Shown here piece by piece: positions 25,490-56,408 of a DNA stretch of 64,000 nt. The DNA is from Patescibacteria group bacterium (lineage in GTDB: Bacteria; Patescibacteriota; Microgenomatia; UBA1400; PJMF01): the NCBI GenBank assembly GCA_016861085.1, contig BOKR01000001.1, forward strand, positions 515,271 through 579,270, read 5' to 3'. Both the position numbers and the translations under genes were made by a program. Under the pieces are notes generated by a model, which was not told where the DNA came from, did not search any database, and saw nothing but the letters and a program-made list of their open reading frames with translations. How positions within the stretch are numbered: position 1 is the stretch's first letter; each line of letters begins with the position of its first letter.

Positions 25490-26089
25490 ATGAATATACT
25501 CAAAAAATCTCATGCAAATAGCACAGTATATTTTGTTGTTGGGTTGCTCATTCTTGTGATTGCATTCATTCAGCAGCCAACACTGCGATCTTGGTTGGGA
25601 ATCGGAAATACAAAGATGTGGAATGATTTGGTTCAAACTGTTAATTCTGGATCTCAATCGGTTGCACAGGATGTATGGATGTTTAGAGAATTCTATTCTC
25701 GAGGCAGAATATATCTACAAAAACAGCAACAGTTTCCTATTCCAGAAGAACTGAGTTCTACAGTAAGCTTGCCAGAGTCATTTTCGCCATATTTACTTTT
25801 TAGGTCTCCAAAGTTAGTAAGTATTGAAGGAAGTTTTATTCAGACCGACTCACTGTTCTTTTCTGAAAAATATCTTAAATCTCTAGGTTGGGAGATGGTA
25901 GCACAATCTAGCTCAACTCAAATTGTTACTTCAAAAGACAAAACAGTTGCACTTATTATTAGTGTTTTTGACATACAAGAAGCAAGCACTGCAAATGGAT
26001 ACTTATATTTTGATTTAAGAGACAATACATTTGCTCAAGCAATGAACCAAAAGAAATGGCTTACCATTAGCCTTGTGTCCTTACAATGA
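25490..26089 (+). CDS. Hypothetical exported/membrane-anchored protein (N-terminal signal anchor)
   Basis: Single N-terminal hydrophobic segment VYFVVGLLILVIAF. Ser/Thr-rich patches. No recognisable domain. Confidence 0.4.
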   Translation: MNILKKSHANSTVYFVVGLLILVIAFIQQPTLRSWLGIGNTKMWNDLVQTVNSGSQSVAQDVWMFREFYSRGRIYLQKQQQFPIPEELSSTVSLPESFSPYLLFRSPKLVSIEGSFIQTDSLFFSEKYLKSLGWEMVAQSSSTQIVTSKDKTVALIISVFDIQEASTANGYLYFDLRDNTFAQAMNQKKWLTISLVSLQ

Positions 26090-27795
26090 TGTATACTCGT
26101 ATGGCAATGCAATTTCTAAAAAAACACAAATTTGCCTTACTCTTAGCATTTGTACTTATTGTAGCTGTACTCCTTAGATTTCCCTTTTTAAGTGTGTTTC
26201 CTCCAAGCATGTTACAAGATGAGGTGGGAATTGGATATGCAGCAATAAGTATTGCTGAAACTGGTATGGATGAATGGGGTGAAAAATTTCCACTCATCTT
26301 TAAGTCATTTGGTGATTTTAAAGCTCCTGGGTTCATTTATGTTACGGCAGTACTATATAAACTGATAGGATGGCAAGAGGTCTTACCTAGAATTACTTCT
26401 GCTATTGCTGGCGTATTTGTAGTTTTGTTCGGGACGCTGTGGATTAAAAAAATATTTAAATCAGATGAACTTGCATTGGTAGCTGGTCTGCTACTCGCTG
26501 CTAATCCTTGGACTATTCACTTAAGCAGAATGGCTCTTGAATCTAACCTTGGCTTAGCTTTTTTTATGGCAGGATTATTGTTTCTCAGCCATGCTCAAAA
26601 CTCGTATTTTAAAATAATTTTGTCAGCAGTTTTTTTTAGTTTCAGCACATATACGTTTCACAGTTTTCGATATGCAGTGATACTTTTTTTACTGGCAACA
26701 ATTTTTGTCACACTCATACTTTACTTCAAAGAAATTAAAAAAAAGACACTATATTTAAAGAGTCTCATTTTTATTTTTGTTATTTCTACTATACTTTCTT
26801 TACCTGGTTTTTTTGCAAAAGGTGCAACTGGAAGACTGAATCAAACACTTATTATTACTTCAGATGACTATATAAAGCTCTCAGAGCACTACGAAAATAA
26901 TTGTCATGGAACTTTTATCGAAATAAATCCAAAATTAACCATTCTATGTAAGCTGAAATATAATAAATTTACCAGACAGGCTTTGATAGGAGTTGAGAGC
27001 TTGGTTAAGCATTTTTCACCAGATTTTCTATTTATTTCTGGTGATACAGAGGTGTTGCGCAATCCAACACAAAGTGGCCAATTTTATGTATTTTTACTGC
27101 CATTCTGGATGATTGGTTCTCTTTTGTTGTTTAAAAACATAAAAGAACAGTATCCTATACTACTTGGGTATTTTGTTGCGCTTGTGCCTTCCACAGTTTC
27201 AGGTAACCCACACTCTACGCGCCTTTCAATTCTTATACCATTTGTACTCGTTACTCTTGTACTAGGGTATCAGTTTTTAAAAGACTATTTCAGAAAAGTT
27301 ACATATTTTTCCTTCACATTTTTGAGCATTCTTCTTGTGTTTCTTGGTCTATTCGTAATTCGGTATTCTGTTGATACATTTGCTACTCATGAAATTACTG
27401 CAACATATCTTTCATACGCTAAAAGAGTAGCAATGCTAGAAGGTGAATACCTCAAAAAAGGATATACTGTCTTTGCTGATCATGACCTCTACCCAGAACC
27501 ACACATGTATTATGCTTACTTCAATAAAATTGATCCAAGGATAACTCAGGAGTCGTTTGCCAAAATCTACGAGGAATCTGCCGGTTTTTCCCGACCAAAG
27601 CAATTCGGAGAGTCTCTCTTTTTTGAAAAAGGCGACTTTTTTGCACTCGACTGTGAACTGAATAAAATAAAGCCATCAGTCTTTTTTACTAATGATGCTC
27701 TTGAGAAAATTGAACCAATCACTATTATTAAAGACAATACGCATTTATACAGTTTTGTATATGTTTATGAAGGTTCACAAAAATGCTTGGATTAG
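26086..27795 (+). CDS. PMT/ArnT-like GT-C glycosyltransferase (GT39/GT83-like), paralog 1 of 4
   Basis: First extracytoplasmic loop carries a DE motif (MLQDEVGIGYAA). About 12 TM segments. Confidence 0.6.
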   Translation: MMYTRMAMQFLKKHKFALLLAFVLIVAVLLRFPFLSVFPPSMLQDEVGIGYAAISIAETGMDEWGEKFPLIFKSFGDFKAPGFIYVTAVLYKLIGWQEVLPRITSAIAGVFVVLFGTLWIKKIFKSDELALVAGLLLAANPWTIHLSRMALESNLGLAFFMAGLLFLSHAQNSYFKIILSAVFFSFSTYTFHSFRYAVILFLLATIFVTLILYFKEIKKKTLYLKSLIFIFVISTILSLPGFFAKGATGRLNQTLIITSDDYIKLSEHYENNCHGTFIEINPKLTILCKLKYNKFTRQALIGVESLVKHFSPDFLFISGDTEVLRNPTQSGQFYVFLLPFWMIGSLLLFKNIKEQYPILLGYFVALVPSTVSGNPHSTRLSILIPFVLVTLVLGYQFLKDYFRKVTYFSFTFLSILLVFLGLFVIRYSVDTFATHEITATYLSYAKRVAMLEGEYLKKGYTVFADHDLYPEPHMYYAYFNKIDPRITQESFAKIYEESAGFSRPKQFGESLFFEKGDFFALDCELNKIKPSVFFTNDALEKIEPITIIKDNTHLYSFVYVYEGSQKCLD

Positions 27796-29420
27796 TCAAA
27801 AAAAATACTCATATTGCTATATTGGTAGTAACCTTACTAGCAGCATTCATTTTTAGAACAATACAATTGGCACAAACCCCAAGCGGTTTTCATGCCGATG
27901 AAGCTTCATTTTATATAAATGCAGTTTCACTTTCACAAACCGGTATGGATGAAGATGGGAATAAACTACCGCTTTCACTTGCTTCGCTTATTGATCCCAA
28001 GCCAGCTTTGTACTCCTATTTACAGATACCTTTCTTATTTATTTTTGACAACCAAGTTTTTGCAGCACGATTTGCCTCAGCCGTGTTATCCATTCTATCG
28101 CTTGGATCATTATATTTACTCATAAAAGAAATTGCAGACAAAAAAATTGCCTTACTAATTACAATTGTTCTGTCTATCTCCCCCTGGCATGTAATTGTTA
28201 GTAGAGGAACTCAAGAAGTTATCACTTCATTTTTCTTTCTAGTTGCGACTTTTTTATTTTTAGTTCAGTACCTAAAAAATCAAAAAAAATCTATTGTGTT
28301 AATTCCTTTTGCAATTAGTGGTTTTTTAAGCATGTACTTGTATCACTCAGCAAAAATAGTATTACCTCTCTTAATTTTGTGCTTTGTTATTTTCTATTTC
28401 AAAAAAACAAAAGAGTATCTCAAAAAAAGTGTCACAGTATTACTTATAATTGCCACGGCTACTCTATTCTCTCTTTTTATTCAAGAGAGTGCATCAAGAA
28501 TATCTGCAGTAAGTATTTTTAATGACCAAGGACCACAACAAAAATTATTTGAGCAAATTTACACCAACAGAACAGAGGTGCCAGTTTCTATAGTAAGAGT
28601 TTTTTACAACAAAGTACAAACGTATACCCTTGCAATTTTTCATGAATACACCAACTATTTTTCTCCTGAATTTTTATTTTTTTCCGCTTCTAAGCCAACA
28701 CGAAACTCAATAACTGATCATGGACTATTGTATTTAATTGAGCTGCCACTAATAGCAATTGGTCTTTACGCTGCCATTAAGAATAAACGAAGAGACTTTT
28801 TTTTATTTGTTGCTTTACTCATCATTAGCCCCATTCCTGCAAGTTTAACCACTCAAGAAACCCCTAGTTTATTGCGTTCATTTCCAATGGTCATTTCTTT
28901 AGCATATTTTGTTGCAATGGGTATTGATGCATTATTTAAAATTAATTCAAAGCTAATAAAAGCTTTAGTAGTATCTTCTATTTCTGTTATATATCTCTGG
29001 CATATGTGCTACTTTGCATTACAGTATCATGTGCAAACCAGGTTTACACAGCCTTGGTTTAGGAATACTCCATATACTAAAATTGCTCAAGAAGTAGCAC
29101 TGATTTCAGATGGATTTGAAAGGATAGAAGTTACAAATGACTTACGTCCGTTATATGCATATTTTGTAATAGAAAATTTAATTTCTATTGAAGAGCTTCA
29201 AGCACATCCATATGCCCGTAACCTTAGTAATTACAATCTTGGAAAGTTCAGTTTTAATAGAGATGTGTGTGATTTTGGTGACATTAAAATGAACGTTTTG
29301 TATATTGCAGAGATTGGTTGCCGCGAGAAAAACTCAAAGTTATCTCAAATGGAAGTGATAAAAGTAATTTCATACGACGACAACACCCAAGCATATGAAC
29401 TTTTACAAGTTACTCAGTAA
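27783..29420 (+). CDS. PMT/ArnT-like GT-C glycosyltransferase, paralog 2
   Basis: GFHADEASFYINAV DE-motif loop. Polytopic. Confidence 0.6.
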   Translation: MLGLVKKNTHIAILVVTLLAAFIFRTIQLAQTPSGFHADEASFYINAVSLSQTGMDEDGNKLPLSLASLIDPKPALYSYLQIPFLFIFDNQVFAARFASAVLSILSLGSLYLLIKEIADKKIALLITIVLSISPWHVIVSRGTQEVITSFFFLVATFLFLVQYLKNQKKSIVLIPFAISGFLSMYLYHSAKIVLPLLILCFVIFYFKKTKEYLKKSVTVLLIIATATLFSLFIQESASRISAVSIFNDQGPQQKLFEQIYTNRTEVPVSIVRVFYNKVQTYTLAIFHEYTNYFSPEFLFFSASKPTRNSITDHGLLYLIELPLIAIGLYAAIKNKRRDFFLFVALLIISPIPASLTTQETPSLLRSFPMVISLAYFVAMGIDALFKINSKLIKALVVSSISVIYLWHMCYFALQYHVQTRFTQPWFRNTPYTKIAQEVALISDGFERIEVTNDLRPLYAYFVIENLISIEELQAHPYARNLSNYNLGKFSFNRDVCDFGDIKMNVLYIAEIGCREKNSKLSQMEVIKVISYDDNTQAYELLQVTQ

Positions 29421-31104
29421 ACACAAAAAAATAATTGTCAGTTTGTTTGTTATTTTTGTTTTAATAATTTTTTCAAATAGGCAATTACTAAGAGATGTAG
29501 TGTATGAAAGTGATGATTATAAGTTACACGCTGTGCGAGTTGCTAATTACTATTTGGCTCTCAAGCAAGGGCAGTTCCCAGTGAGATGGGGCCCAAATCT
29601 AAACGGCGGATATGGCTATCCTTCTTTTAACTACATGTATCACACTCCTTATTTCATCGGTGCTGTACTGCATTCTACTGGATTTAGTGTACAAGAAAGT
29701 CTTAATCTAACGGTGCTTTTATCTCTTCTGCTGGCGAGTGTTAGTTGCTATTTTTTTGTGCGATCATACAGTACATCTGAACCTTGGAATATGTTATTAG
29801 CACTTTTTTTTGTTCTTAATCCTTATATCTTATTAAATGTTTATTGGAGAGGTGCAATCGGTGAACTATTCTTTTACGCTACAACCCCCCTTTTCTTTTT
29901 GGGTATAAAACACTTACTAGAAGGTAGAAAAAAAGATTTTTACTTTCTACTGACTGCAACTTCAGTTATGATATTGACACTTTCTCACCTGCCTTCACTT
30001 ATTCCACTTCTCTTACTTTTTATCTTTTTTATTGTAACGAATAAAGAAAAACTCTCAATCAAAAAGGCAATCTTTATTGTTTTTGCTTGTGTGTTAGGAT
30101 TCCTGTTAAGCGCTTGGTATTGGATTCCTGCCTATTTTGAACAGTGGATGGTTATCTATGAAAATGCTGGGTCATTAGCGAAATATCAAACGCAGTTTGT
30201 AAATAGTATTAATTTATTTACTATCTCGAAATCAGGCAACAGTAGCGAGTTTTTTAAAGATGTTTTACAAATTGGAAGCATATCAGTTGTAGCATTTGTT
30301 TTTGGAATAGCGTTATTGCGAAAAACAAAAAAAAATACTACATGGCTGCTACTCATCATCATTTGCCTTGTTTTAATTTCAGAAGCTTCTTTACCACTTT
30401 GGAACAAATTTACACCTCTACAATATGTGCAGTTTCCTTGGAGATTTTTATGGATAATTATTTTTTCTACAGTAATGATACTAATACATATTGTTACTGA
30501 GAAAAAAGTTTCACATTTCATAAAAAAAATCATAGCTACAAGCATTTTTCTTGGATTGATTATATCCACAAGATCGTATGTTATTAACAAAGGAGAAACT
30601 AATAGACTAGACTTTGATTGGTATCATCCAACTTTTGAAACCGGTTCAAGCTTCAATGAACACTTGCCAGTTTGGGCCAAGACTTCATACTACTTTCCCG
30701 ATGAGCTGCTGTATGTCACTGCAACACAAGCTGCGACACTACAAAAGAACAATCTAGTAACGAGCATCCATAAACTTTCAGAATTACAGCCGACAATTCT
30801 AAAATTTGATGGAAAGACTATTTCATATTCAATTCATCCTGACCAAGAAATCATCGTATTATTTAAACGCCTGTTTTACCCCGGCTGGGAGGCTTCACTT
30901 GAGAAAGAAAAGCAGAAAATAATAATAAATATTCCTGAATATGAAGGGATTATTGCAGTTACAGTACCTAATCAGAAATCAACGGTAACGATCGATTTTA
31001 CTGGTTTTACACCATTAAGAAAATGTGCTGAAATCATTTCTGTATTTTCCTTCCTGTTTCTAGTCGGACAAATTATTTTTAAACAGTATAAAATGAGGAT
31101 ATGA
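29395..31104 (+). CDS. YfhO-like GT-C membrane glycosyltransferase, paralog 2
   Basis: KQGQFPVRWGPNLNGGYGYP, QFPWRFLW, and a C-terminal FYPGW...domain. Confidence 0.5.
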   Translation: MNFYKLLSKHKKIIVSLFVIFVLIIFSNRQLLRDVVYESDDYKLHAVRVANYYLALKQGQFPVRWGPNLNGGYGYPSFNYMYHTPYFIGAVLHSTGFSVQESLNLTVLLSLLLASVSCYFFVRSYSTSEPWNMLLALFFVLNPYILLNVYWRGAIGELFFYATTPLFFLGIKHLLEGRKKDFYFLLTATSVMILTLSHLPSLIPLLLLFIFFIVTNKEKLSIKKAIFIVFACVLGFLLSAWYWIPAYFEQWMVIYENAGSLAKYQTQFVNSINLFTISKSGNSSEFFKDVLQIGSISVVAFVFGIALLRKTKKNTTWLLLIIICLVLISEASLPLWNKFTPLQYVQFPWRFLWIIIFSTVMILIHIVTEKKVSHFIKKIIATSIFLGLIISTRSYVINKGETNRLDFDWYHPTFETGSSFNEHLPVWAKTSYYFPDELLYVTATQAATLQKNNLVTSIHKLSELQPTILKFDGKTISYSIHPDQEIIVLFKRLFYPGWEASLEKEKQKIIINIPEYEGIIAVTVPNQKSTVTIDFTGFTPLRKCAEIISVFSFLFLVGQIIFKQYKMRI

Positions 31105-32929
31105 CCAATATGCTAAAAAAAATGACTAAAGCAAGTTTGTTACTTCTCACTCTGATTTTCGGAATTGGAATCTTCACTCGATTTTATGCTATTTCTACTA
31201 TTCCACCATTTATTCCTCACGATGAGCTTGGTTATTTTATTAATGCCAAAGCGCTACAACTTTCTGGTACAGATATAACTGGCACTTGGAATCCATTTTC
31301 TTTAGTTCCAGTAACACCAACCTTAGCTGAATTAACTACACATCTGATTGTCTTATTTAACTGGCTTCCAATTAGCCAAATAGTAGCTGCAAAGTTACCA
31401 TTCTTACTCATGAGCCTACTTTTACCATTTCTAATTGCAGGAATCTCATATGAATTTACAAAATCAAAACAGGTATCAGTCTTTGCTTGGGTCATTACGC
31501 TCTTTAATCCTTGGGTATGGCAAATTGGTAGAATGCCATTTGATGGATATGCAAGCTTCTTTTTTATACCTTTGGTGCCTATGTATTATTAAAATTAAAG
31601 GATTGGCAAAAGTTGTGGTCTATTCCAATCTTATTTGTTGGCTTCTATCAGTATCAGGGTCATAAGTTAGTTTTTTTGTTCTGGGTTTTTGCTTTCTTTT
31701 TATATTCAATAAAATCGCATTTAGTCATCTCAAAAAATAGTATTAAAACAATTAAAAATTTTCCAGTTAAGCGAATTATTCCTCAGATTATTGTTTTGCT
31801 TTTCTCATTTTTATTGTTCACCTTCTACCTTTTCGTGCAGCTGCCAAATCACAAAAGTAAAGATAGATTAAACACTCTATTTACTCCAAGTTCTTCTGAG
31901 ATTGCTCAACTGGTTAATGAGCAAAGAAGATTGAGTCTGGATTCTCCATTAAATAAGGTATTCATAAATAAGTATAGTATTTGGACTGGTAAGATATTTG
32001 AGCGTTTTACAGAGACTTATGGTTTTCACTTTTTATTTCTTGAAGGACAAGTAAGCAATTCTGCATGGAGTGTTTGGAATCATGGTATTTTTTATATTGT
32101 TGATGCAGTTCTAATTATATTTGGTTTTATTTACTTGATTATTTCCAAGAGACAGCGACTCCTGTTGTTCTTGCTTTCACTTCTTGCCATTCTTGTTGTT
32201 CCAAGCTTGATATCTTCAGACAGATCATATTTCTTTAGATCATCACTCAATATTTCCATTTTAATTTTTGCTGCATCACTTGGTGCTGAATTTATCAGAA
32301 AATATTTTCCAAAAATTATTCAATTATTCTTTGTCCTTATCTATGCAATAAGTATCTTTCATTTTGCTTATCTATATTTTGTGCGCTACCCAATTATTGC
32401 CTCTGATAGGCAGTTTTTTAGTGATAGAGTTCTGGCCGAATATTTACGAAGAGTTCCTGAAACCCAAAAAGTTGTCCTCTTTAGCCCTGAGCCAGAATTT
32501 ACTGTTTCTACATATCTATTTTTTAATAATATACTAAACAAAGATACCATCTCTGAAATTCAAAACGCATATAAACTTCAAAACTATCAAATTGGAGCTA
32601 AAAAATTTATTGGCGATTGTTTACCAATCGAAATAGTTAATTCAGATGAAGTTGTAATTAGTAGACATGATATTAGAAGGTGTGAACCAAATGAAGACAC
32701 CACTTTAAACTCAGAACCTGTCACTGACATTCAAACTTTTTACAACTCACTCCAGATTCAAGCAATCAAAGATAGCGGAACGTACTATCACATTTATAAT
32801 GATCAGCTTTGTTCTGGCTTAGAGATAAATCCATATCTTAGAATTGTGAGCCCTAATCAATTTGATTTTGGAGCAATGTCAGATAAGGAATTTTGCCAAG
32901 CTTGGATTTCAAAATTAATTGAAAATTAA
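31101..32929 (+). pseudogene. PMT/ArnT-like GT-C glycosyltransferase (paralog 3), split into two ORFs by a frameshift. This may be a pseudogene, a phase-variable gene or a sequencing artefact
   Basis: ORF 31101-31592 carries the DE loop (IPHDELGYFINA) and ends at a TAA. ORF 31613-32929 continues the TM-rich body in the -1 frame. The two frames overlap only at about 31544-31592, around a T6 run near 31560-31565. Combined length is about 600 aa, matching the intact paralogs. Confidence 0.5.
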
Positions 32930-33495
32930 TTAACTTTCAGATATGTGGCGTTGTACCACAGTTTATCTTTAAGTAACTCTTTTTCTTTGGGGATGTAATC
33001 AAACATTCCAACAACCTTCTGCATTTCCTCAATTGACTCAACAAACGCAAATACATACTCTGTGTCAGTAGCTTTAATGAGAACAAAATCATTCCCTTTT
33101 GAAACAATTTCACCGGGAAACTCATTTGTTATTTTTTTAAGTGCCTCGTCTGCTGTACTAGAAACAACTGCATCAAGACTTCGTAGATAAGTCGAATCAT
33201 AATAAAATAGTGGAGTTACAGCATCAGCTACAGAAATAATTCTGAATGTGCCGTAAAAACCAGTAAATTCTTCATCTCGTAAAAAAGTCCCTGGGCTAAA
33301 CCGTTCTCTGAATTCCCAATATTTTTCTGGATCAAACTCATTTGCTAACAAATCTCTTTTGAGTTTTTCAAATAACCCAATTCGATAATCGGAATTAAAT
33401 TTTGGCTTGAGATAAGGATGCTGAAAAACCGAGACTACCATAACAAGAACTGCAACTATAATGAAAAAAAGTCGATTCGAAGGCTGAGTAATCAT
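32926..33495 (-). CDS. Hypothetical membrane-anchored extracytoplasmic protein
   Basis: N-terminal TM segment LFFIIVAVLVMVVSVF followed by a soluble domain. 4-nt convergent overlap with the upstream gene. Confidence 0.4.
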   Translation of the reverse strand: MITQPSNRLFFIIVAVLVMVVSVFQHPYLKPKFNSDYRIGLFEKLKRDLLANEFDPEKYWEFRERFSPGTFLRDEEFTGFYGTFRIISVADAVTPLFYYDSTYLRSLDAVVSSTADEALKKITNEFPGEIVSKGNDFVLIKATDTEYVFAFVESIEEMQKVVGMFDYIPKEKELLKDKLWYNATYLKVN

Positions 33496-33533
33496 GAATT
33501 TATTATAGCACTACAATGAGGTATACTTGATCC

Positions 33534-35201
33534 ATGCAATTTACTTCTAGACTTGTGTTAGGGCTCTTACTCGTTCTTGTTAGTTTTATAAGCTTAGCAG
33601 ATTTAATTTATAGGCCGGGACATCCGGTAACTTTTGATGGGCATGTGCACATGACCACAATGAACCAATTTGCACAAAGCTTATATGATGGTGAGTTTCC
33701 CGTTACTTGGGCAAATAATTTTGCCAATTTTGGTCACCCATTACCAATAATTGCACACCAAGTACCAGCATATTTAGGTGCTACTTTAATATTACTCGGA
33801 TTTTCCACAGAGCTTGCGTACATCTCATTAATTTCTGTATCTGTTCTTTTTTCTAGCTTTTTGTTTTATGCTTTCTTTAGAAAATTTGCTGATCAAGCAC
33901 TTTCACTTACAGCAACTGTTTTTTCTGTATTTTTTCCGTATAGAGTATTAAACATTTATACAAGAGGTGGACTCCCTGAATTAATGGCAACAATTTTTCT
34001 CCCCATTTTGTTGCTTGCTGTATGGAACGTCCAAAAAAAGAAGTATTTTAAGGCGACTTTACTCTTTTATATAGGTGTACTTGGTACTGCACTGACACAC
34101 CCCATGATGCTTGTTATTTTTTGTGTTCCTGTACTAGCATACTTTTTTTATGGATTAGATAAAAAACATTTAAAAAAAGAATTGCAAATAGCAGTTGTTG
34201 GCGCTAGTTTAGGCATACTCAGTGCGAGCTACTATCTTATCCCTCTTTTAATTGAGATGCGCTATTTTTACCAATCAAGGGTTGAAAAAGCTGTCGGAGC
34301 AGACACCTTTTTAACAGTCAAGCAACTTTATGATCCTACTTGGTACTATACACTCACACATCCGGGTCCAAGAGGTAACTATATCAAGTTAGGAACAATT
34401 GAGTGTATCATTTTAGCTCTCGCAGTAACAATATTAGTCTCACTATTACTGCTACCAAAACACCAATATATAAAAAAATACTTTAACAAAGATACGGCAA
34501 AAAATTTACTTTTTTGGACGAGCCTAAGTGGTTTGTTATTACTACTTATGTTACCTATTAGTAAACTACTGTATTCACTTCCTGTAATATATCAAATTCA
34601 ATATCCTTGGAGATTTTTAGCGGCATTACAAATTACTATTCCTTTGGTTTTTATTTTTCTCATTCAAACTTTTAAAAAACTGAACAACTTTTATATTTTT
34701 ATTGTTTGTATTGCGTTAGTTTTGTGGTTTAGAATTCCACAGTTCTACGGCAAGAACTATATTGTCCAACCTGAAAGTGATTATTTTTTTAATCAAGCAA
34801 ATTTACACAGCACTAACTTCAATACAGTATGGTCTAGTAATACTGAAGACTACGAGAAAAAAACCGTCCAAGCGAAAATAATTGAGGGAGCAGGCGAGCT
34901 CACAATACTAGAAGAAAAGAATGCAAGCCGCCTATATAAAACCAAAAGTGATTTCGAATTGAGACTACTAGACTATACTTTTTACTTTCCAGGATGGACT
35001 ACATATGTTGATGGGTCACCAGTTATTATTGAGTATCAAGATCCAAGCTACAGAGGCTTAATTACTTATAAGGTCCCTTCAGGAGAACATGAGATTAAAG
35101 TTGTATACGAATATTCAAAAGTAAGATTAGTCGGGTTATTAGCAACAGTTGTAGGGCTGCTAGCATTTCCAGTAGTTTTATTTATTATTCGAAAAAAATA
35201 G
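33534..35201 (+). CDS. YfhO-like GT-C membrane glycosyltransferase, paralog 3
   Basis: YDGEFPVTWANNFANFGHP, QYPWRFLA, and C-terminal YTFYFPGWTTYVDG...SGEHEIKV. Confidence 0.5.
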   Translation: MQFTSRLVLGLLLVLVSFISLADLIYRPGHPVTFDGHVHMTTMNQFAQSLYDGEFPVTWANNFANFGHPLPIIAHQVPAYLGATLILLGFSTELAYISLISVSVLFSSFLFYAFFRKFADQALSLTATVFSVFFPYRVLNIYTRGGLPELMATIFLPILLLAVWNVQKKKYFKATLLFYIGVLGTALTHPMMLVIFCVPVLAYFFYGLDKKHLKKELQIAVVGASLGILSASYYLIPLLIEMRYFYQSRVEKAVGADTFLTVKQLYDPTWYYTLTHPGPRGNYIKLGTIECIILALAVTILVSLLLLPKHQYIKKYFNKDTAKNLLFWTSLSGLLLLLMLPISKLLYSLPVIYQIQYPWRFLAALQITIPLVFIFLIQTFKKLNNFYIFIVCIALVLWFRIPQFYGKNYIVQPESDYFFNQANLHSTNFNTVWSSNTEDYEKKTVQAKIIEGAGELTILEEKNASRLYKTKSDFELRLLDYTFYFPGWTTYVDGSPVIIEYQDPSYRGLITYKVPSGEHEIKVVYEYSKVRLVGLLATVVGLLAFPVVLFIIRKK

Positions 35202-36353
35202 CTTGTGCTTTCTTGAAAATAGTATTGCCAGAACAGCTAATAGTAACAAACCTGAACCTATGGAAAATGTTACAGTATGCACAGACGTTGCATCAATATA
35301 TTTACCAATGTAGTACGCACCAAAAACGTATGGTATATTGGCTAACATACTATACGTTGAAAGCGTAGTGGCTCTATATTTAGAAATAGTTTCAGAATTA
35401 ATTGTTGCACTTGCGTTGTTTCCAAACAATTCAATCAGACCATTTCTTAGCACAATAACAACAGTACCCAAAATGACCGATGTGTATGGAATGATTACCA
35501 TACTTACAGAAATAAACACCGCAAATAGCAGGACTGACTTCCAAACTCCAATTCGTCGTGAAATGGGCAATGCCATCTGACCAAAAATTGATGAAACAAA
35601 ATACATTCCAAAAACAATGAGACCAAGCTGTGAGCTATTCCACCCTTGCTCAACTAATTGAGAATCAATTAAAACATGACCATTAATAACAACGAACATT
35701 GTCAAAAGAATTAATAACATATTTTTTATCAGTACCCGCCTTGACTTAAATAATTCCCTAAAGCCATATATATTCTGCTTAATATAGTTACTCCAAGTAA
35801 AGACTTCAGAATCAATTGGTGGCTCTTTCAAAAATAGGCTCAAAAAAATGGCTACGAAAATCATTAGAGCTAAACCAAGGAATGGATATCCAGGATTCAT
35901 TTTATATAAAATGCCGCCAAATATACTTGAAACTGCCAAAGAAGCCATTTTGAAGCTTGAGATATTACTCAATACTTTTTGATATGTTTGCTCGCGTTTT
36001 TCTGTAAGTAGTGTGTCATATACTAATGCTTCAACTGTTCCAGATGAAAAAGCAGAGCTAATAGTTGCCATTACGACACCAAGAGCCAAAAAAGAAAATG
36101 AATCTGCTGTACCCATGAAAATATAACCTATGAAACCAAACAGATATGATACTGTCAAGGTATATTTCTTTCCCAACATATCAGCGATAGCTCCTGTTGG
36201 GATTTCGGCTAATACAGAGGTTATAATCATTATAGATTCTAGTACCCCGATCCCTGAGTAATCTGTATGCAGTAGATAAAAAAGTACCCAGATTGGTGCC
36301 CAAAAACGACTATAATTAAGGATTGTAAGAATATATACAAGTTTGATATTCAC
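35178..36353 (-). CDS. MFS-superfamily transporter
   Basis: About 12 TM segments with an MFS-like loop between TM2 and TM3 (GAIADMLGKK). Confidence 0.6.
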   Translation of the reverse strand: MNIKLVYILTILNYSRFWAPIWVLFYLLHTDYSGIGVLESIMIITSVLAEIPTGAIADMLGKKYTLTVSYLFGFIGYIFMGTADSFSFLALGVVMATISSAFSSGTVEALVYDTLLTEKREQTYQKVLSNISSFKMASLAVSSIFGGILYKMNPGYPFLGLALMIFVAIFLSLFLKEPPIDSEVFTWSNYIKQNIYGFRELFKSRRVLIKNMLLILLTMFVVINGHVLIDSQLVEQGWNSSQLGLIVFGMYFVSSIFGQMALPISRRIGVWKSVLLFAVFISVSMVIIPYTSVILGTVVIVLRNGLIELFGNNASATINSETISKYRATTLSTYSMLANIPYVFGAYYIGKYIDATSVHTVTFSIGSGLLLLAVLAILFSRKHKLFFSNNK

Positions 36354-36356
36354 AAC

Positions 36357-37982
36357 CTACTCCACACTCTGTTTTGTTCTGAAAAATTGGAATCGAACTG
36401 ATCCATCAGCCCCATAGATAATATGATCAGCTTGTTCTATTGGGAGATCATCCATTCCACTGCCGACAATCAGCGTATTTTTTCGTAAGAAATCTCCCAT
36501 ATTAATTTTGTCAGTAAATTCATATTTAATAAGCGAACCACCCTGATACCAAATTGGGTTGGTCTTTCTAACAAATAATGCATAGATGTATGGTTGACCA
36601 TAATCTGAAGTAAAAATTATTTTTTCAACAGGTTCAGTTCCTTCACCAGTTTCGTATTTTTGAGCAAGTCGAAATGCCTCAAGGTATCCGTCATTAAAAT
36701 CATTCGTAGAAGCTTGAGCAAAGTTTGTAAAATAATGCCAAACAAACGATACAGAAAACAAAACATGTATTGCAATCATACTCCCGACAAATGACTTAAC
36801 AACAATATTTTTTTCCTTATGAGTACCAGAAACTTGGATATTTAGTTTTGACTTCTCAAGTATATTGATTATGTAATCAAGTCCAAAGACAGCCAAAAAA
36901 ATAAATCCTGGTAATGCGAGTAACGCTCTATTCGCATGTGGTACTTCCATAGCCACACTAGCAGGTAGTAGTCCCGCAAAAATAATACCAAGAGATAATA
37001 GTTGGTATTTGAAGCTACTTGATTTCTTGCTCTGTCTTAAAATAGAAATTACTCCAGCTGTTACCAAAAAGAAAGTTGTAATAAATAGTACTCCCAAATA
37101 TCCCGCTCCATGTCTTAAAGTTGTTGTTTCACCTCTGAGTAAAAATTCCGGTGAAAGATGAACTGCATAACTTTTAATAACGTATGCTAGTTTTTGAATT
37201 AAGCCTAAATCTGAAGAAAAAATTGTCACCCCAGCTCTTGTTAATCCCTTACCAAACACCGAGTCCAGAATAAATGGAATCAAACCAACTACAAAAATGG
37301 TTAGTGGTAAAACAATTCTTTTTAAATTTGTGATAATTTGTCTAGAAAATAAAACAATAAATATGAATCCAAGAACTGGTAGCGCTATTTTAGCGCTGTG
37401 ATATGTATAAATTGCCGCGTCAAAAAGCACTGCAGCACCAAATAATAAATGTGGTTTTTTAAAATCTGCTTTGAGTGCTTTAATACAAAAAAGCAATCCC
37501 CAGATAATAAAAGCTAACGCAATCCCTGATTCAAATCCAGCCCGAGAAAAATGAATGTGCCAAGGAGATGTTGTTATTAAAACACCAGCAAGAAGTGCAA
37601 ATAATTTTTTATATCTATGTGTTTCAAATATCTCTTCAGTAAGAATTATTATTCCTAGGATAGCGAGTAATGAGAATACTGCAAAGGGAAGTCTAACTGC
37701 AAATAGGTTCATGCCAAATAGGTATGTAGAAATTCCGTTCATATAAATAGCCAACGGGGCCTTATAGTCTCCAAACGACATAAAGCTCACAGGTAAGAAA
37801 TTGAGCCATTCATCTCTTCTTGTATGTACAACAGCATATCCGTTATATCCTATTGCTGCCTCATCCCAGGTCATTCCATGAGGTACATCAGCTAGCTGAT
37901 AAAATCTAATGAATACTGCTATCAACAATATCCCCAAAACAGAAAAGAAATACCAATGTTTGTTTAATACAGTACCTATCAT
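36357..37982 (-). CDS. PMT/ArnT-like GT-C glycosyltransferase, paralog 4
   Basis: HGMTWDEAAIGYNGY DE-motif loop. Polytopic. Confidence 0.6.
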   Translation of the reverse strand: MIGTVLNKHWYFFSVLGILLIAVFIRFYQLADVPHGMTWDEAAIGYNGYAVVHTRRDEWLNFLPVSFMSFGDYKAPLAIYMNGISTYLFGMNLFAVRLPFAVFSLLAILGIIILTEEIFETHRYKKLFALLAGVLITTSPWHIHFSRAGFESGIALAFIIWGLLFCIKALKADFKKPHLLFGAAVLFDAAIYTYHSAKIALPVLGFIFIVLFSRQIITNLKRIVLPLTIFVVGLIPFILDSVFGKGLTRAGVTIFSSDLGLIQKLAYVIKSYAVHLSPEFLLRGETTTLRHGAGYLGVLFITTFFLVTAGVISILRQSKKSSSFKYQLLSLGIIFAGLLPASVAMEVPHANRALLALPGFIFLAVFGLDYIINILEKSKLNIQVSGTHKEKNIVVKSFVGSMIAIHVLFSVSFVWHYFTNFAQASTNDFNDGYLEAFRLAQKYETGEGTEPVEKIIFTSDYGQPYIYALFVRKTNPIWYQGGSLIKYEFTDKINMGDFLRKNTLIVGSGMDDLPIEQADHIIYGADGSVRFQFFRTKQSVE

Positions 37983-37989
37983 AGTTTTA

Positions 37990-39567
37990 CTATTCCTTCA
38001 TTGGTGTAGCCGTGTACACCACTAGCCTGTCCCCAAATTCTTTTTGAGAAATGATTTGATCATACTTTTGACGCCCCCACCAATTTCCCAATAACTCAGA
38101 ATCCTGTTTATCAGTCACAATATAGTAAATGACTTTTGGTCTACCTTGCCATCTTTGACCATATCTTGTATCAATTTCATCTAGGAGGTCAACCTTTTCC
38201 TTGACATAATTTGGTACTCCTGGTTCATATGCAAATTCAAGAGGCAACACTTCTCCTTGTAAGCCCTGAGCTAAAAATTCATACTGAAATGGAAAATCAT
38301 AAATATCTGGTTGATAGGTGTATACCGAAAAATCTCTTTCCCCAGCATCCAATCTAATATACTCAATAACCTTTTGTTTTGTTATGTACATTCCTGAGTC
38401 AGTTACAAATTTTGGTTTTTCTATCAAAAGAAAATAATGTAATCTACTGAGAGCTGTCAAAACATATAGTGCAATAAAAACGATAACAAATTGCTTATTT
38501 AGCTTATGTACCACTGTTCCGACTAAAATCGTTGCCACAGGAATAAGTGGGTACACATACCATAAATTAAAGTGTAAAAATAAAAACCCAAGTGTAGGTA
38601 TCAAAAAAAATACGCCTGAGATCAAAAAAATTTTTCTTAATTGCAAATCAATTTTCTTATTTTTATATATAAACCAAACAGAAAAAATAATAAAAAATAA
38701 AAATAAATAACCTAACCATGGTGCTGTCATATCTGGTCGTGATTCAAAAATAATATTTCTTGTTTCACCAAAAATTGTGTTTATTACGTGCTCGACTTTA
38801 TTGGTGCTCAGACCATCACCCTCACCACCCCTGGAAAAATATTCAATGATTGCTTTTGCTTGTGGAAAATTATTTTTAAATTCGAACAAGAGTTGCGGAA
38901 TAAATGGTACCGCAAAAGAAATAACAGCAATCAAAATATTTTTTAGTGATGGCCAAAGTTTATGTAGCAGTAGTACTAACAAAATAATAACCGGATAAAA
39001 AATAGCAAAAGCCGAAGAAAAATGAAATCCCAAACTTGCCGTTAGTGCTAAACCTGCTAGTAATTTGTTGTCAATTTTTTTGAGCTGAACCTGCTTAAGT
39101 AGCAACACGATAATAATAATTGTGAGTAAAGTCATTGGATATGGGTTCCAAGCACTTTTCGAAATCATTAACCAAAATCCAGAGAAACCTATGATTACTG
39201 CTGATTCTAAGTTGAAATATCTATAAACCAAAAACATTTGCAATAGTACTAATATGCTCATTGCAACGGCCGCAGAAGCAGGATTAAGTCCAGAAATAAG
39301 ATAAAAAGGTGCCAATAAATAATACCAAGCTGGTCCAAAATAGAGTCCTGGAATACTGGTCCAGGGCCCAATAAATTTTAACTCTGGAATTGAAATCATG
39401 TGTAAAATTGCAAGAGAATCCTTACCGTGGTCGAATAAAAAAGGAACAACATTATCTTGAATATATGAAAATCTCATTACAGCAGCCAAAAAAAATAATG
39501 CTAAAAACCATTTATGTTTTGCTATAATTTTCTTACTATTCTTTGTAATTAATTTCATATTTTTCAC
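37990..39567 (-). CDS. Polytopic membrane protein, putative GT-C-like glycosyltransferase (family unassigned)
   Basis: 525 aa with many TM helices. N-terminal loop FLFDHGKDSLAILHM. Confidence 0.35.
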   Translation of the reverse strand: MKNMKLITKNSKKIIAKHKWFLALFFLAAVMRFSYIQDNVVPFLFDHGKDSLAILHMISIPELKFIGPWTSIPGLYFGPAWYYLLAPFYLISGLNPASAAVAMSILVLLQMFLVYRYFNLESAVIIGFSGFWLMISKSAWNPYPMTLLTIIIIVLLLKQVQLKKIDNKLLAGLALTASLGFHFSSAFAIFYPVIILLVLLLHKLWPSLKNILIAVISFAVPFIPQLLFEFKNNFPQAKAIIEYFSRGGEGDGLSTNKVEHVINTIFGETRNIIFESRPDMTAPWLGYLFLFFIIFSVWFIYKNKKIDLQLRKIFLISGVFFLIPTLGFLFLHFNLWYVYPLIPVATILVGTVVHKLNKQFVIVFIALYVLTALSRLHYFLLIEKPKFVTDSGMYITKQKVIEYIRLDAGERDFSVYTYQPDIYDFPFQYEFLAQGLQGEVLPLEFAYEPGVPNYVKEKVDLLDEIDTRYGQRWQGRPKVIYYIVTDKQDSELLGNWWGRQKYDQIISQKEFGDRLVVYTATPMKE

Positions 39568-39584
39568 ATCGTTTTCACGATATA

Positions 39585-40511
39585 TTAAATTATTACTTTA
39601 TTTTTTTGCATGTGTTTCTTACGTTTATAATTCCAATAGGGAAGCCACAAATAATATTGTAGTAATTGCCAAAAAGTCGCATTTTTTTTCACAAAAGCAA
39701 CTGCATTCTTCCAACTCATGTCTAGTATTTTTTGTAAACCAAAAACGTCGATGTTAGTTGATTCATGAACATGAAACACAATTGCTTTTTCATCGAACAA
39801 CACTTTCCAGCCATTTTTACGAGCTTGAAAGGAGAGATCAACATCCTCCCAATAGGCAGGATAAAACGTTTGATCAAAGCCGTTTAGAAAAACCCACTTT
39901 TGCTTATCAAACATACCGCTACCTCCACTTACCCAAGCAGTTTGACCAGAAATCATGTCTGTAGCTTTACTATGCATAAACATACCTTTTTCAAACCACA
40001 ACTTGTTTTTACCTGACCTATCTCCACTTTCATCTCGTTCAAATTCTAAACATCCAACTGCAAATACTAAGGGGTCAGTAAAATGCTGTATCAACTCTGA
40101 TCTAACATTTTTGGTAGGTTTAACATCGTTATTGAGTAGAAAAATATACTGTTTACTGGAAAACATAACCCCAATATTAGCTGCTGCTGCAAAACGCATA
40201 TTTTTTTCTAAAGCAACCAAATATATAGTAATTTTATTTTTTCCAATAACTGCAATGTTAGTATATAGTTTGTAAATAAAGTCTGTTGGTTGTGGAAAAT
40301 ATTTTTTAGATACAGCTGTAGGCAATTGAACACGTTTTGTTAATTTTAACTTATAGGTGCGAATTAAATATTTAACACTTTCATCGGAACTATTATCATC
40401 GACAATCACAAGCTCATCTCCATTACTCAAACAACGCAACACGTCAGGCAAAAACTTTTTTAAAAGTGTTTGACCGTTGTAGTTTGGAATAACGGCGGAT
40501 ACAATTTGCAT
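39585..40511 (-). CDS. GT2-family glycosyltransferase
   Basis: VSAVIPNYNGQTLL, LVIVDDNSSDES motifs. Confidence 0.7.
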   Translation of the reverse strand: MQIVSAVIPNYNGQTLLKKFLPDVLRCLSNGDELVIVDDNSSDESVKYLIRTYKLKLTKRVQLPTAVSKKYFPQPTDFIYKLYTNIAVIGKNKITIYLVALEKNMRFAAAANIGVMFSSKQYIFLLNNDVKPTKNVRSELIQHFTDPLVFAVGCLEFERDESGDRSGKNKLWFEKGMFMHSKATDMISGQTAWVSGGSGMFDKQKWVFLNGFDQTFYPAYWEDVDLSFQARKNGWKVLFDEKAIVFHVHESTNIDVFGLQKILDMSWKNAVAFVKKNATFWQLLQYYLWLPYWNYKRKKHMQKNKVII

Positions 40512-41594
40512 TTAGAACATCTCCCAAAGTGTTTTCTCAAATTCTTGTTTACTAAATTTTTTAACTTGATTAAGTGATACTTCTTGAAATTTTTTATATG
40601 TATCTGGATTAGTTATTAAGTCCTTGGTAATTTCAACACATTGCTCACCAGTTTCCCAAAGCAAATCATGTAATGGTAAACCTAGAATCTCTTTTTGACC
40701 GCCTTTTTTGATAACAATAGGTACACAGCCAGCTGCCATAGCCTCTATTGTACTAATACCAAAATGCTCAACTTTTTCAGGGTTTGAATTTTCATCAACA
40801 CCAAACCCCGTTGCATGCCAATAGAATGAGGCTGTTTTATACAAAGAAACCAGCTCATCTCTGGAGACAGTAGTTTTTATTTCAATGGGATATGCTCCAA
40901 CTGAATCTTTTACTTGATTAAAGTAAAGTTCATCTTCAACTGATCCAACTAAAACCAATCTCCACCCCTGCGTTTCATTTTTATATTCATCAACCAGTTT
41001 TTTAAACAGCTGAACTAAAACATCTTGGCGTTTACTATGCAGTTGCCTAAAAAAACGACCAACGTTTAGAATTATCTTTTCTTTATTTTTTTTAGGTGAA
41101 ATTTCATCTAAAGAAACAAGTGGATAATGTACAAAGTTAATTGTTGTATTCCAGCTCTTTTCAATAACACTTTTAGTAAATTGGGAATTAGTATTTTTTA
41201 CATTCCAACTTGCGAGTTTAATTTTCTGCCATACATTCAGTGAGTTTGTAAAAGGAATTTGCACATGCAAGATATTTTTCTTTGCCATACTCAAAAAGAA
41301 GCTGCCATCTGTAACATAATATACTGCGTCATATAAGCTAGTTTCTTGTAATTTTTCATATATTGAACCAGTTTTTAATTTTGAAGAAATAAAAGTTATT
41401 TTTTTCAAGCTATAATTTAAAAATTGTTCATATTTATTAGTAATTTCATTTATTTTTTCACGTGAAATAAATTCTTCTGATAGTGCAATAAAAACCTCAT
41501 GTTTTGTAGCAACAGTAGTTGCAACATCAAAAAAATGTTTTTCACCACCACCAAGGTGGTCTGGAATATACGGAGAATAAAATAATACTCGCAT
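40512..41594 (-). CDS. GT4-family glycosyltransferase
   Basis: HFGISTIEAMAAGCVPIV. Start set at the internal ATG (MRVLFYSPY) that forms an ATGA overlap with the upstream stop; the ORF track start 41678 would overlap by 85 nt. Confidence 0.7.
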   Translation of the reverse strand: MRVLFYSPYIPDHLGGGEKHFFDVATTVATKHEVFIALSEEFISREKINEITNKYEQFLNYSLKKITFISSKLKTGSIYEKLQETSLYDAVYYVTDGSFFLSMAKKNILHVQIPFTNSLNVWQKIKLASWNVKNTNSQFTKSVIEKSWNTTINFVHYPLVSLDEISPKKNKEKIILNVGRFFRQLHSKRQDVLVQLFKKLVDEYKNETQGWRLVLVGSVEDELYFNQVKDSVGAYPIEIKTTVSRDELVSLYKTASFYWHATGFGVDENSNPEKVEHFGISTIEAMAAGCVPIVIKKGGQKEILGLPLHDLLWETGEQCVEITKDLITNPDTYKKFQEVSLNQVKKFSKQEFEKTLWEMF

Positions 41595-42412
41595 TACTGA
41601 CTCTTCCACATGTTTTCGATTTCTGCTTCTTTTGCTACATATTTTTCCGAAATCGAAGGCTTTTGCTGTAACTCCCATACCTGAATGTACACTATCACAC
41701 GGTTTATCCCCTGAATCACTGCTTCAACCAAGCCCGCCATACCGTCTTTATACCCCTGCTTTAAAACCGCACGTCTAAAAAACTCCATAAACCCTTTTCT
41801 AAACAAGGTTAGCAACGTTACTTTTGGAACTCCGGCTTTGAATAGCTCTTTTGCTTCAATTGGAGTCCAGGCAGCAGTTTTATGTAGACCGCTGACTGTA
41901 TCTCTGTGTGTAAAATGAACGAGCTTTGTCTGCAAATCAGCAACTTCTCCTGAATATTTGGGACTTTCGTGAACCTGCCCAAACCAACCCGTTATTGCAT
42001 TCTTTTCAAAAACTCGCTCTACCCAATCATCCTGCCATCCACCGGCTTTAAATCGCTTCCCAAAGTAAATATTTTCACGCTGAACCCTAAACACTTTTGT
42101 ATCTGATGTTTCAATCATTACTTTGATTTCTTTGGCTAATGTAGGTGTGACTCGCTCATCAGCATCGATATACAAAACCCAAGCCGATTTAGCTCTCTTT
42201 AAAGCTTCTTCTCTGAGGCGAGAGAAGGAATCATGTTTAAATGAAATAACGATTGCACCAAGACTCTCAGCAATTTCACGAGTCTCATCAGTTGAACCAT
42301 CATCAATTACAATTATTTCATTGCACCACAACACACTTTTAATGCAGTTTGCAATCATTTCTGCTTCATTTTTAGCGATTATCAAAGCACTAATTGACAG
42401 TTGTTTACTCAT
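41594..42412 (-). CDS. GT2-family glycosyltransferase (WaaE/KdtX-like)
   Basis: ISALIIAKNEAEMI, IVIDDGSTDET, YIDADERV motifs. Confidence 0.65.
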   Translation of the reverse strand: MSKQLSISALIIAKNEAEMIANCIKSVLWCNEIIVIDDGSTDETREIAESLGAIVISFKHDSFSRLREEALKRAKSAWVLYIDADERVTPTLAKEIKVMIETSDTKVFRVQRENIYFGKRFKAGGWQDDWVERVFEKNAITGWFGQVHESPKYSGEVADLQTKLVHFTHRDTVSGLHKTAAWTPIEAKELFKAGVPKVTLLTLFRKGFMEFFRRAVLKQGYKDGMAGLVEAVIQGINRVIVYIQVWELQQKPSISEKYVAKEAEIENMWKSQ

Positions 42413-42461
42413 AAGATCATCTTACCTCAAAAGGAGCTTGTGACCAACTGGTACTTTGCAA

Positions 42462-55659: not shown

Positions 55660-56000
55660 AAACACTTGATTTAATTAACATTGATTCATTTAAACAAAAC
55701 TATTATAAAGCGTTGCTTCCACTTGAAGAAATTAATGCTTTTTTAGGTCAGTTTGAAGAACGAGAACTTGAAGCTGCAACACAATCACTAATCTCTCTGT
55801 TTGACGTTGCTATTACAAAAACGGTTTTACTCAATTTAGACTCTGTTCCCGAAAAACAAGAATTTTTGCGGCTTGCACAAGATGATTATACAAGCCCTGC
55901 GGTACTGGATTTTCTTATTGATACGTTTCCAGGTAGCGAAGAACTTATTAAACAAGCGTTAGAACGAACACTTCTTAGTGCAAAAAAGGCGATACTGTAG
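55656..56000 (+). CDS. Hypothetical protein (114 aa)
   Basis: No recognisable motif. 4-nt overlap with the upstream gene. Confidence 0.3.
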   Translation: MKTLDLINIDSFKQNYYKALLPLEEINAFLGQFEERELEAATQSLISLFDVAITKTVLLNLDSVPEKQEFLRLAQDDYTSPAVLDFLIDTFPGSEELIKQALERTLLSAKKAIL

Positions 56001-56016
56001 TATCGTAGGACATGTC

Positions 56017-56406: not shown

Positions 56407-56408
56407 CT

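Follow-up and report, generated by a model that had tools for sequence, protein, structure and literature searches.

What has become of a surface-glycosylation gene that is deposited as two adjoining reading frames? A Patescibacteria genome has approximately 11 paralogues of the GT-C type within a surface-glycosylation cluster of 28 kb. The gene is one of these, and it could have been inactivated, could be switched on and off by a homopolymer, could be rescued during its expression, could function as two parts, or could simply have been read wrongly. We have addressed this question in a 64-kb segment of the genome, referred to as the window; the features discussed are listed in Table 1.

The disrupted gene and the site of the lesion

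A premature TAA closes the N-terminal frame and a TGA closes the 5' side of the -1 frame, confining the shift site to positions 31544-31589. The sequence-only reading of this DNA had described an N-terminal part of 163 aa ending at 31590-31592, a remainder of about 438 aa in a -1 frame opening at about 31544 just after a TGA, and a switch of frame within about 50 nt containing the T6 run, and each of these holds, with the frame overlap being 46 nt. The T6 run is the sole homopolymer in this overlap. From 31544 onwards no stop codon interrupts the -1 frame until its end at 32927-32929, and its first start codon is the TTG at 31613. Insertion of one T yields a 609-aa product, as against the protein of roughly 600 aa that had been proposed, and this aligns end-to-end with the in-window paralogue at 27783..29420 (blastp E 7e-21).

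The N-terminal fragment is native through residues 1-155, and its final eight residues (IPLVPMYY) are out of frame. It holds the invariant D41-E42 pair in the first external loop; the C-terminal fragment accounts for most of the transmembrane helices and also contains an invariant GFYQYQGHK motif and an external domain with four invariant cysteines. The junction peptide of the truncated product is SFFFIPLVPMYY, and its counterpart in the restored frame is SFFFYTFGAY. There are 98 T6 and 48 T7 runs in the window, so that a T6 run is by itself ordinary. An alternative genetic code in which TGA is a sense codon was rejected, since standard-code open reading frames densely cover the window and it is a TAA that ends the N-terminal frame.

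Table 1. Features of the disrupted gene and its immediate surroundings (window coordinates).
Feature	Position	Strand	Comment
Whole disrupted gene	31101..32929	+	Encodes a 609-aa membrane glycosyltransferase of the GT-C fold once a T is restored
N-terminal fragment ORF, 163 aa	31101..31592	+	GenBank GIK83895.1
TGA shutting the -1 frame on its 5' side	31541..31543	+
T6 run, site of the 1-nt deletion	31560..31565	+	T7 in intact alleles (TTC TTT TTT TAT = F F F Y)
Premature TAA of the N-terminal fragment	31590..31592	+
C-terminal fragment ORF, 438 aa from TTG	31613..32929	+	GenBank GIK83896.1
Terminator-like hairpin just 3' of the gene	32944..32960	+	Between the disrupted gene and the convergent gene 32926..33495

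Reproducibility of the T6 allele

Homopolymers are the commonest place for indel errors and the gene is otherwise perfectly healthy, both of which would be expected if the true genome had T7 and the missing base were a sequencing or assembly artefact, the alternative that the sequence-only reading had raised. However, T6 was obtained separately in contigs from DRR258780, DRR258781, SRR8466088, SRR7904081, and SRR10579387, five runs whose independence is judged from their accession numbers alone (DDBJ and NCBI), as well as in the GenBank MAG, whereas identical flanks are read as T7 in three runs from a sister strain. The T6 and T7 states were scored from assembled contigs and proteins. The T6-bearing contigs are 100% identical to the window, with the exception of L006, which has one mismatch. 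Moreover, approximately 136 other A/T runs of at least 7 nt are present in the window and none of them breaks a gene; no other split genes were seen in the 64 kb, showing that the assembly is not generally indel-prone. An artefact is very unlikely given the recurrence of T6 in the assemblies of five runs, and the T6 allele is genuine.

One pair of open reading frames, 55978..56406 and 56352..57992, looked suspicious as a possible sign of an indel-prone assembly, but the two are separate and ordinary in appearance, presumably ybeY and dnaX from their translations. Their overlap arises from longest-ORF extension.

Intact alleles and the ancestral state

The sister strain, represented by contigs (L001, L002, and L008) from three sequencing runs (SRR31091722/24/25) with approximately 97% nucleotide identity, has T7 and an intact gene whose 609-aa protein is 98% identical to the repaired product, bearing out the earlier assumption that T7 is the intact state. 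In a global MAFFT alignment of the window with the sister strain the missing T is the single indel in 16.6 kb, as against 539 substitutions; the 4-5 gap openings reported by blastn against L001 and L002 were discounted because the global alignment gives only one. T7 is also found in the next-closest orthologues, L035 and L036-38, and together with the sister strain this establishes T7 as ancestral.

An intact 609-aa protein, P0001, is 98% identical to the repaired product with 100% coverage, and no truncated protein occurs among the 40 database homologues, which are full-length at 575-618 aa. The sequence-only reading had proposed comparing the T run among relatives and asking whether orthologues are also split: close relatives have T7, and none of the 40 homologues is split. 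Two other species (L013 and L022) have in-frame nonsense codons in their own copies, so that the family has been lost repeatedly, through different lesions.

A membrane glycosyltransferase with a predicted GT-C fold

The AlphaFold2 model of P0001 has a pLDDT of 88.5 and a pTM of 0.89, and every one of the best 26 Foldseek matches in the PDB is a GT-C enzyme (E 8e-5 to 0.3; TM approximately 0.35-0.45). The model has the multi-pass membrane fold seen in STT3, PMT, ArnT, and ALG enzymes, and acidic residues lie in its first extracytoplasmic loop; these are D41 and E42, which follow helix 10-28 and are invariant in 40 homologues. The PMT DE motif likewise places an Asp-Glu pair in the first external loop. 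The predicted structure thus supports the earlier assignment as a GT-C glycosyltransferase, and the DE loop does lie in the N-terminal part.

Sequence searches are less specific. Neither the repaired protein nor P0001 matches any Pfam or NCBIfam family, and a PDB sequence search gave no match at E <= 1. Only one of the 40 homologues shows any match to PMT_2 (E 1.2e-4), and no match at the gathering score was found for PMT or PMT_2 (GT39-like; PF02366 and PF13231). Homology to the PMT_2-positive paralogue at 27783..29420 is clear (hhalign 99.9%, E 8.5e-31). ArnT (GT83; 5ezm) ranks 11th among the structural matches with a TM of 0.34, no better than other GT-C enzymes. The earlier description as 'PMT/ArnT-like' is therefore apt for fold and paralogy, but not for sequence.

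Like the GT-C enzymes that use polyprenyl-phosphate sugars (PMT/GT39, ArnT/GT83, STT3/PglB/AglB, ALG9/ALG12, DPY19, and YfhO-type), the protein is predicted to combine a multi-helix membrane module with an external C-terminal domain. It differs from them in its own GFYQYQGHK motif and four-Cys C-terminal domain, and the TM is only about 0.4. In its intact 609-aa form the protein defines a GT-C family that is uncharacterised and for which neither Pfam nor NCBIfam has a model, and this family, with its D41-E42 pair, GFYQYQGHK motif, and four C-terminal cysteines, seems to be confined to Microgenomates-type Patescibacteria. GT2 genes, a Wzx-like Polysacc_synt_3 gene, and an MFS gene share the cluster, and from this context the enzyme is a putative user of a polyprenyl-phosphate-linked sugar donor on the external side of the membrane.

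Age of the lesion and selection

The repaired gene has a dN/dS of 0.071 relative to L001, and its neighbours range from 0.05 to 0.29. There are 11 amino acid differences from L001, only approximately 3-7 of which arose on the window lineage, and 43 synonymous differences from the intact allele; comparison with the intact allele revealed no second lesion in the repaired gene. The neighbour-like dN/dS, the few derived changes, and the single lesion together indicate that the gene has been neutral for no more than about a tenth of the branch, and the lesion is thus very young.

Two features of a recent pseudogene are present, disruption relative to intact orthologues and reproducibility of the lesion, and a third, relaxed selection or added decay, is not seen. 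Such an absence of decay leaves just two options, a very young pseudogene or a gene still in use, and a low dN/dS would equally be expected of a gene that is ON in part of the population or rescued at a low level by slippage. The 'fresh pseudogene' that the sequence-only reading gave as an alternative fits all of the data, including the intact orthologues and the solitary lesion, and the split gene is probably a redundant GT-C paralogue that recently lost its function through a frameshift now fixed in the clone.

The T run as a candidate switch

Phase-variable surface glycosyltransferases are classic in Campylobacter, Neisseria, Haemophilus, and Helicobacter, and the sequence-only reading had suggested phase variation for this gene, in which the run would act as a contingency tract, T7 (ON) and T6 (OFF) interconverting by slipped-strand mispairing to give heterogeneous surface glycans, with the window captured in the OFF state. 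The gene belongs to this classic target class, shows no decay, and has in-frame and out-of-frame lengths among close relatives (T6 here and T7 at approximately 97% identity). A surface-glycosylation frame that is set by homopolymer length, with both ON and OFF lengths among related strains, is what it shares with poly-G genes for LOS and capsule in Campylobacter jejuni, with Neisseria lgt and pgl, and with the Helicobacter pylori fucosyltransferases. However, T6 and T7 among close relatives are equally expected from a one-off mutation, and the length tracks lineage, with T6 in all contigs of the clone (five runs and the MAG) and T7 in all contigs of the sister strain. At the assembly level there is accordingly no variation in tract length within a strain or population. 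The T7 version of the clone's own protein is absent from its 90% cluster in a collection of 15 billion proteins, and an exact-pattern scan of JGI metagenome contigs gave no match to T5-T9 alleles of the site.

The properties of the tract also argue against a switch. Campylobacter, Neisseria, and Helicobacter tracts are long, usually at least 8 G/C, differ in length inside a single culture, and show conservation of the DNA itself, whereas the present tract of 7 T is short for an A/T contingency tract, is simply what a conserved F-F-Y (TTT TTT TAT) encodes at 35% GC, is interrupted in many orthologues, down to 2-6 T, and is invariant across samples of the clone. Thus nothing in it exceeds coding needs or is conserved as DNA in the manner of a hypermutable repeat. 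In the aligned 16.6 kb, 44 other runs of at least 7 nt are unchanged, and so are an A8 (31115) and a T7 (31671) in the gene itself. Long A/T tracts are not enriched relative to synonymous-codon shuffles, either in the disrupted gene (3, with 3.2 expected) or across the 11 GT-C genes (49, with 44.5 expected and an sd of 4.6).

Phase variation is therefore unlikely, and we give slightly less credence still to a working ON/OFF switch dedicated to one gene in a large battery of GT-C surface-glycosylation genes, with its low dN/dS maintained by use in an ON sub-population. If true, it would be the first hint of homopolymer-driven surface phase variation in the host-dependent, ultra-small Patescibacteria (CPR); a literature search found no paper on phase variation in Patescibacteria. 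Tract heterogeneity in reads, if shown, would make the locus a candidate for CPR surface phase variation, but the present findings do not point there.

Possible slippage rescue or a split enzyme

The disrupted gene could also be rescued without any change in its DNA, through RNA polymerase slippage on T6 or a -1 P-site slip of tRNA-Phe (UUU UUU). Pairing is fully restored after a -1 slip on U6, so that the product would be identical to the protein of the intact allele, and even a little full-length FFFY protein would hold the gene under selection, in keeping with the low dN/dS. Transcriptional-slippage insertions do occur in A/T runs, but their frequency climbs exponentially with run length, the RNA:DNA hybrid is 9 bp, and a run of six nucleotides is at the low end for slippage (PMC5574713). 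Shuffled sequences fold just as well as the 95 nt downstream (z = 0.35), there is no in-frame canonical X XXY YYZ heptamer, U6 being the only slippery sequence, and the frameshift is conserved in no orthologue. We consider rescue of this kind improbable. A programmed frameshift, whether ribosomal or transcriptional, was rejected, as the orthologues are all single-frame and the downstream structure is absent.

Alternatively, translation could begin again at TTG 31613 and the two halves could function together as a split enzyme. An AAGGA has arisen 11 nt 5' of this codon through a derived, synonymous A-to-G change at 31600, and SD-like motifs precede 13 of 55 starts, compared to a background of 6.7%. 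However, this change is one of the 43 synonymous differences and is unremarkable among them, the transmembrane helix 148-165 is destroyed, residues 156-170 are missing from both products, and none of the orthologues is split. A functional split enzyme is thus extremely unlikely.

Origin and consequences of the frameshift

A recent loss-of-function mutation can be accounted for as follows. The single base would have been lost, T7 to T6, by slippage during replication of the Phe-Phe-Tyr codons (TTT TTT TAT), and the T6 allele would then have become fixed in the clone. This clone is represented by the 1.17-Mb MAG 'Patescibacteria group bacterium BroJett025', and its relatives are Microgenomates. 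As a result of the deletion, the 609-aa glycosyltransferase ends after residue 155, partway through a predicted transmembrane helix (148-165 in the GT-C model). Because the catalytic D41-E42 loop is cut off from the GFYQYQGHK motif and the external Cys-rich domain, activity is most likely abolished. The disrupted gene is the last in a + strand run of overlapping genes (25490..32929) and the last of its transcription unit, and with the hairpin and convergent neighbour that follow it, no further gene is exposed to polarity from the frameshift. The loss is presumably tolerated for this reason and because of the approximately 11 GT-C paralogues in the cluster.

Homopolymer frameshift pseudogenes are known from the AT-rich reduced genomes of Buchnera and Blochmannia (PMC3017870, PMC5574713). 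The present gene resembles these in having a 1-nt change in an A/T run within a coding sequence of a small, low-GC genome, in being otherwise intact, and in having intact orthologues. It differs in that the endosymbiont cases discussed as slippage-rescued have runs of approximately 9-11, whereas that described here is short, T7 to T6, and in that the host is a free-living or epibiotic member of the Patescibacteria from reactor metagenomes, rather than an insect endosymbiont.

The locus provides a small but clean case of gene turnover in very large GT-C arrays, with a paralogue caught just after its inactivation, and nonsense alleles in two other species. Its main implication is one of annotation hygiene, in that GIK83895.1 and GIK83896.1 are halves of one frameshifted gene.

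Structure and intact form of the split glycosyltransferase gene

Both reading frames of the putative glycosyltransferase gene at 31101..32929, together with the T6 run (31560-31565) between them, were found where the sequence-only reading had placed them; the frames overlap by 46 nt, and this run is the sole homopolymer within the overlap. One added T yields a 609-aa product, reading ...DGYASFFFYTFGAYVLLKLKDWQK..., that is 98% identical to the intact relative P0001, agreeing with the proposal that a single-base change restores a protein of about 600 aa. The 455 codons that follow contain neither a further stop nor another indel. The T6 run as such is commonplace, because the 35% GC window holds 98 T6 and 48 T7 runs.

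Reading-frame features of the split gene
Feature	Position	Strand	Detail
N-terminal ORF, 163 aa	31101..31592	+	stop TAA 31590-31592
TGA closing the frame one base behind	31541-31543	+	5' limit of the downstream frame
Downstream frame, open	31544 to stop 32927-32929	+	first start codon TTG 31613, giving a 438-aa ORF

Homology indicates that the two ORFs are one gene. Searching 5.8 billion protein clusters yielded 40 homologues, each of 575-618 aa and with at least 94% query coverage, and the best of these, P0001 (609 aa, 98% identity, 100% coverage), has the junction SFFFYTFGAY, identical to that predicted by T7 repair. Residues 1-506 of the repaired protein align with the neighbouring paralogue at 27783..29420 (25% identity, E 7e-21), which the 40-homologue profile matches with 99.9% probability in an alignment spanning the junction.

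P0001 and its near-twin P0044 are encoded by contigs L001, L002, and L008 of a sister strain (runs SRR31091724, -25, and -22), which are collinear with the window at ~97% nucleotide identity and contain T7 at the site. When L001 (16.6 kb) and window positions 26283..42929 are aligned globally, they differ by 539 substitutions and one indel, the T of the target gene. The aligned region includes 45 A/T runs of at least 7 nt and 13 of at least 8 nt (counting the A8 and T7 within the target gene), and every other run of at least 7 nt has the same length in L001 and the window. T7 is also present in the next-closest orthologues, L035 (72% protein identity) and L036-38 (68%), and its occurrence across these relatives and the sister strain indicates that T7 is ancestral, bearing out the view that it is the intact state. 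Distant orthologues spell the conserved F-F-Y with TTC or TAC codons and have runs of 2-7 T; T7 is a by-product of Phe-Phe-Tyr coding at low GC and not a conserved DNA element. No orthologue is split at the same place, and the frameshift is absent from all of them.

Origin of the T6 allele

We regard it as likely that a dispensable GT-C paralogue was recently inactivated here by an ordinary deletion through replication slippage. Slippage would have removed one T from T7, and the resulting T6 frameshift would have become fixed in a clone present in several reactor metagenomes. The finding is real yet ordinary.

A homopolymer error, initially considered as the alternative, is very unlikely as the source of T6. 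Five runs have Logan assemblies that contain the 163-aa fragment and a 160-aa alternative call (DRR258780, DRR258781, SRR8466088, SRR7904081, and SRR10579387), whose independence is judged from accession numbers alone, and GenBank also has the fragments (GIK83895.1 / GIK83896.1) in a 1,173,889-bp contig of the MAG 'Patescibacteria group bacterium BroJett025'. All of the clone contigs contain T6 and, over lengths of 1.2-21.7 kb, match the window at 100% identity except for one mismatch in L006; identical flanks contain T7 in three sister-strain runs, and no other gene in the 64-kb window is broken. A literature search found no paper mentioning the five runs.

Contigs L003-L007 and L041, from the Logan assemblies of these five runs, match window positions 19395-41592 over up to 21.7 kb with no more than one mismatch and so represent one clone; DDBJ and NCBI accessions both occur among the five runs. 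The recurrence could mean that the runs share an inoculum or laboratory, or that the clone is very widespread.

Age of the lesion and selection

The repaired gene and L001 differ by 43 synonymous and 12 non-synonymous changes, with a dN/dS (Nei-Gojobori) of 0.071 that is alike in the two halves (0.063 and 0.072); for the eleven flanking genes the ratio lies between 0.05 and 0.29. Polarisation of the 11 amino-acid differences with 27 orthologues places three (V334, S386, and A391) clearly on the window lineage and about four on the other, with four ambiguous. We estimate that neutral drift over the whole branch would give roughly 80 replacements (dS/2 about 0.06, about 1,400 non-synonymous sites), so that selection can have been absent from the gene over no more than about a tenth of the branch. 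Either the lesion arose very recently or the gene remains in use. The fresh pseudogene offered as one possibility fits the intact orthologues, the low dN/dS, and the otherwise undamaged downstream codons.

Two adjacent genes at 35178-37982 (an MFS transporter and a 541-aa PMT_2-like gene) have a dS of about 0.30-0.32 against L001, compared with 0.03-0.12 for the remaining genes, which looks like recombination import from a more divergent lineage.

Use of the T run as an ON/OFF switch is compatible with the low dN/dS and with the T6/T7 polymorphism between strains, but no test gave it support and the proposed phase variation now appears unlikely. No tract variation was seen within the clone at the assembly level, and none of the five members of the 90% cluster holding both fragments is a T7 version of the window clone. 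When synonymous codons were shuffled within each gene, A/T runs of at least 7 nt were as expected in the target gene (3 observed, 3.2 expected) and in the eleven GT-C genes (49 observed, 44.5 expected, sd 4.6); runs of at least 8 nt in the latter numbered 13, with 17.3 expected.

If the P-site slipped by -1 on UUU UUU, exactly the native protein would result, so a trace of full-length product may be made without a DNA change. However, shuffled sequences fold as well as the 95 nt 3' of the run (z = 0.35), no orthologue has the shift, and U6 is short against a 9-bp RNA:DNA hybrid, making rescue by slippage quite improbable. Measured slippage climbs exponentially with run length, and no frame restoration by transcription error was observed in the same study (PMC5574713).

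That the two halves form a functional split enzyme is highly implausible. At 31600 (window 31598-31615) the window clone has a derived synonymous change from A to G (AAA to AAG, Lys), where L001, L035, and L009 have A. The change generates AAGGA 11 nt before TTG 31613, at which the downstream fragment has its first start codon. However, it is one of the 43 synonymous differences and probably arose by chance, and residues 156-170 would be present in neither fragment.

Protein family and genomic context

Neither the repaired protein nor P0001 matches Pfam or NCBIfam models, and the family profile has no match among PDB sequences; DUF6056, Dpy19, or PMT_2 is touched by a few of the more distant members. 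AlphaFold2 gives a confident model of P0001 (pLDDT 88.5, pTM 0.89), for which the 26 top PDB matches by Foldseek (E from 8e-5, TM about 0.4) are without exception GT-C glycosyltransferases, namely STT3/OST, ALG12, ALG9, Pmt4, ArnT, PglB, AglB, DPY19, Emb, and AftA. The GT-C assignment is thus supported by the predicted structure, and the narrower PMT/ArnT label holds for fold and paralogy but no further. Invariant residues include D41-E42 in the first external loop, F182/Y185/K189 in a GFYQYQGHK motif, and four cysteines in the C-terminal domain. The frameshift, at residue 155-156 within modelled helix 148-165, parts the acidic loop from all other conserved elements.

The target gene is the last in a plus-strand run of overlapping genes (25490..32929); beyond it lie a terminator-like hairpin and a convergent gene. 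Given the high GT-C redundancy and the lack of a polar effect, losing a single paralogue should carry little cost. Relatives of the protein occur in MAGs of Woesebacteria, Pacebacteria, and Microgenomatus, and the orthologues of two of these species have in-frame nonsense codons in the C-terminal external domain (TAA at L013:~7444-7446, MAG CAZTBN010000012.1; TGA at L022:~7366-7368, Ca. Pacebacteria UBA6180), the frame then continuing unchanged to the normal end. These suggest repeated loss of the family through unrelated lesions, or are possibly truncated variants.

Genes for GT-C-like membrane proteins are unusually dense at window positions 19101-47613 (about 19 to 48 kb), where about eleven of them (395-609 aa) have PMT_2, PTPS_related/YfhO, or PIG-V-like hits or, in several cases, no Pfam match. 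GT2 and GT4 transferase genes lie between them, as do those for a Wzx-like flippase and an MFS transporter. Two small conserved genes without a Pfam match, 32926-33495 (-; 189 aa) and 25490-26089 (+; 199 aa), stay beside GT-C genes in each of the related loci (L001, L035, and L036). Among L009-L034, many GTDB representative MAGs with the target-type gene (binchicken / SRP*_co* TPA assemblies) bear the title 'uncultured Pseudomonadales bacterium', which for carriers of a Microgenomates-type gene is almost certainly a placeholder or mislabelled taxonomy.
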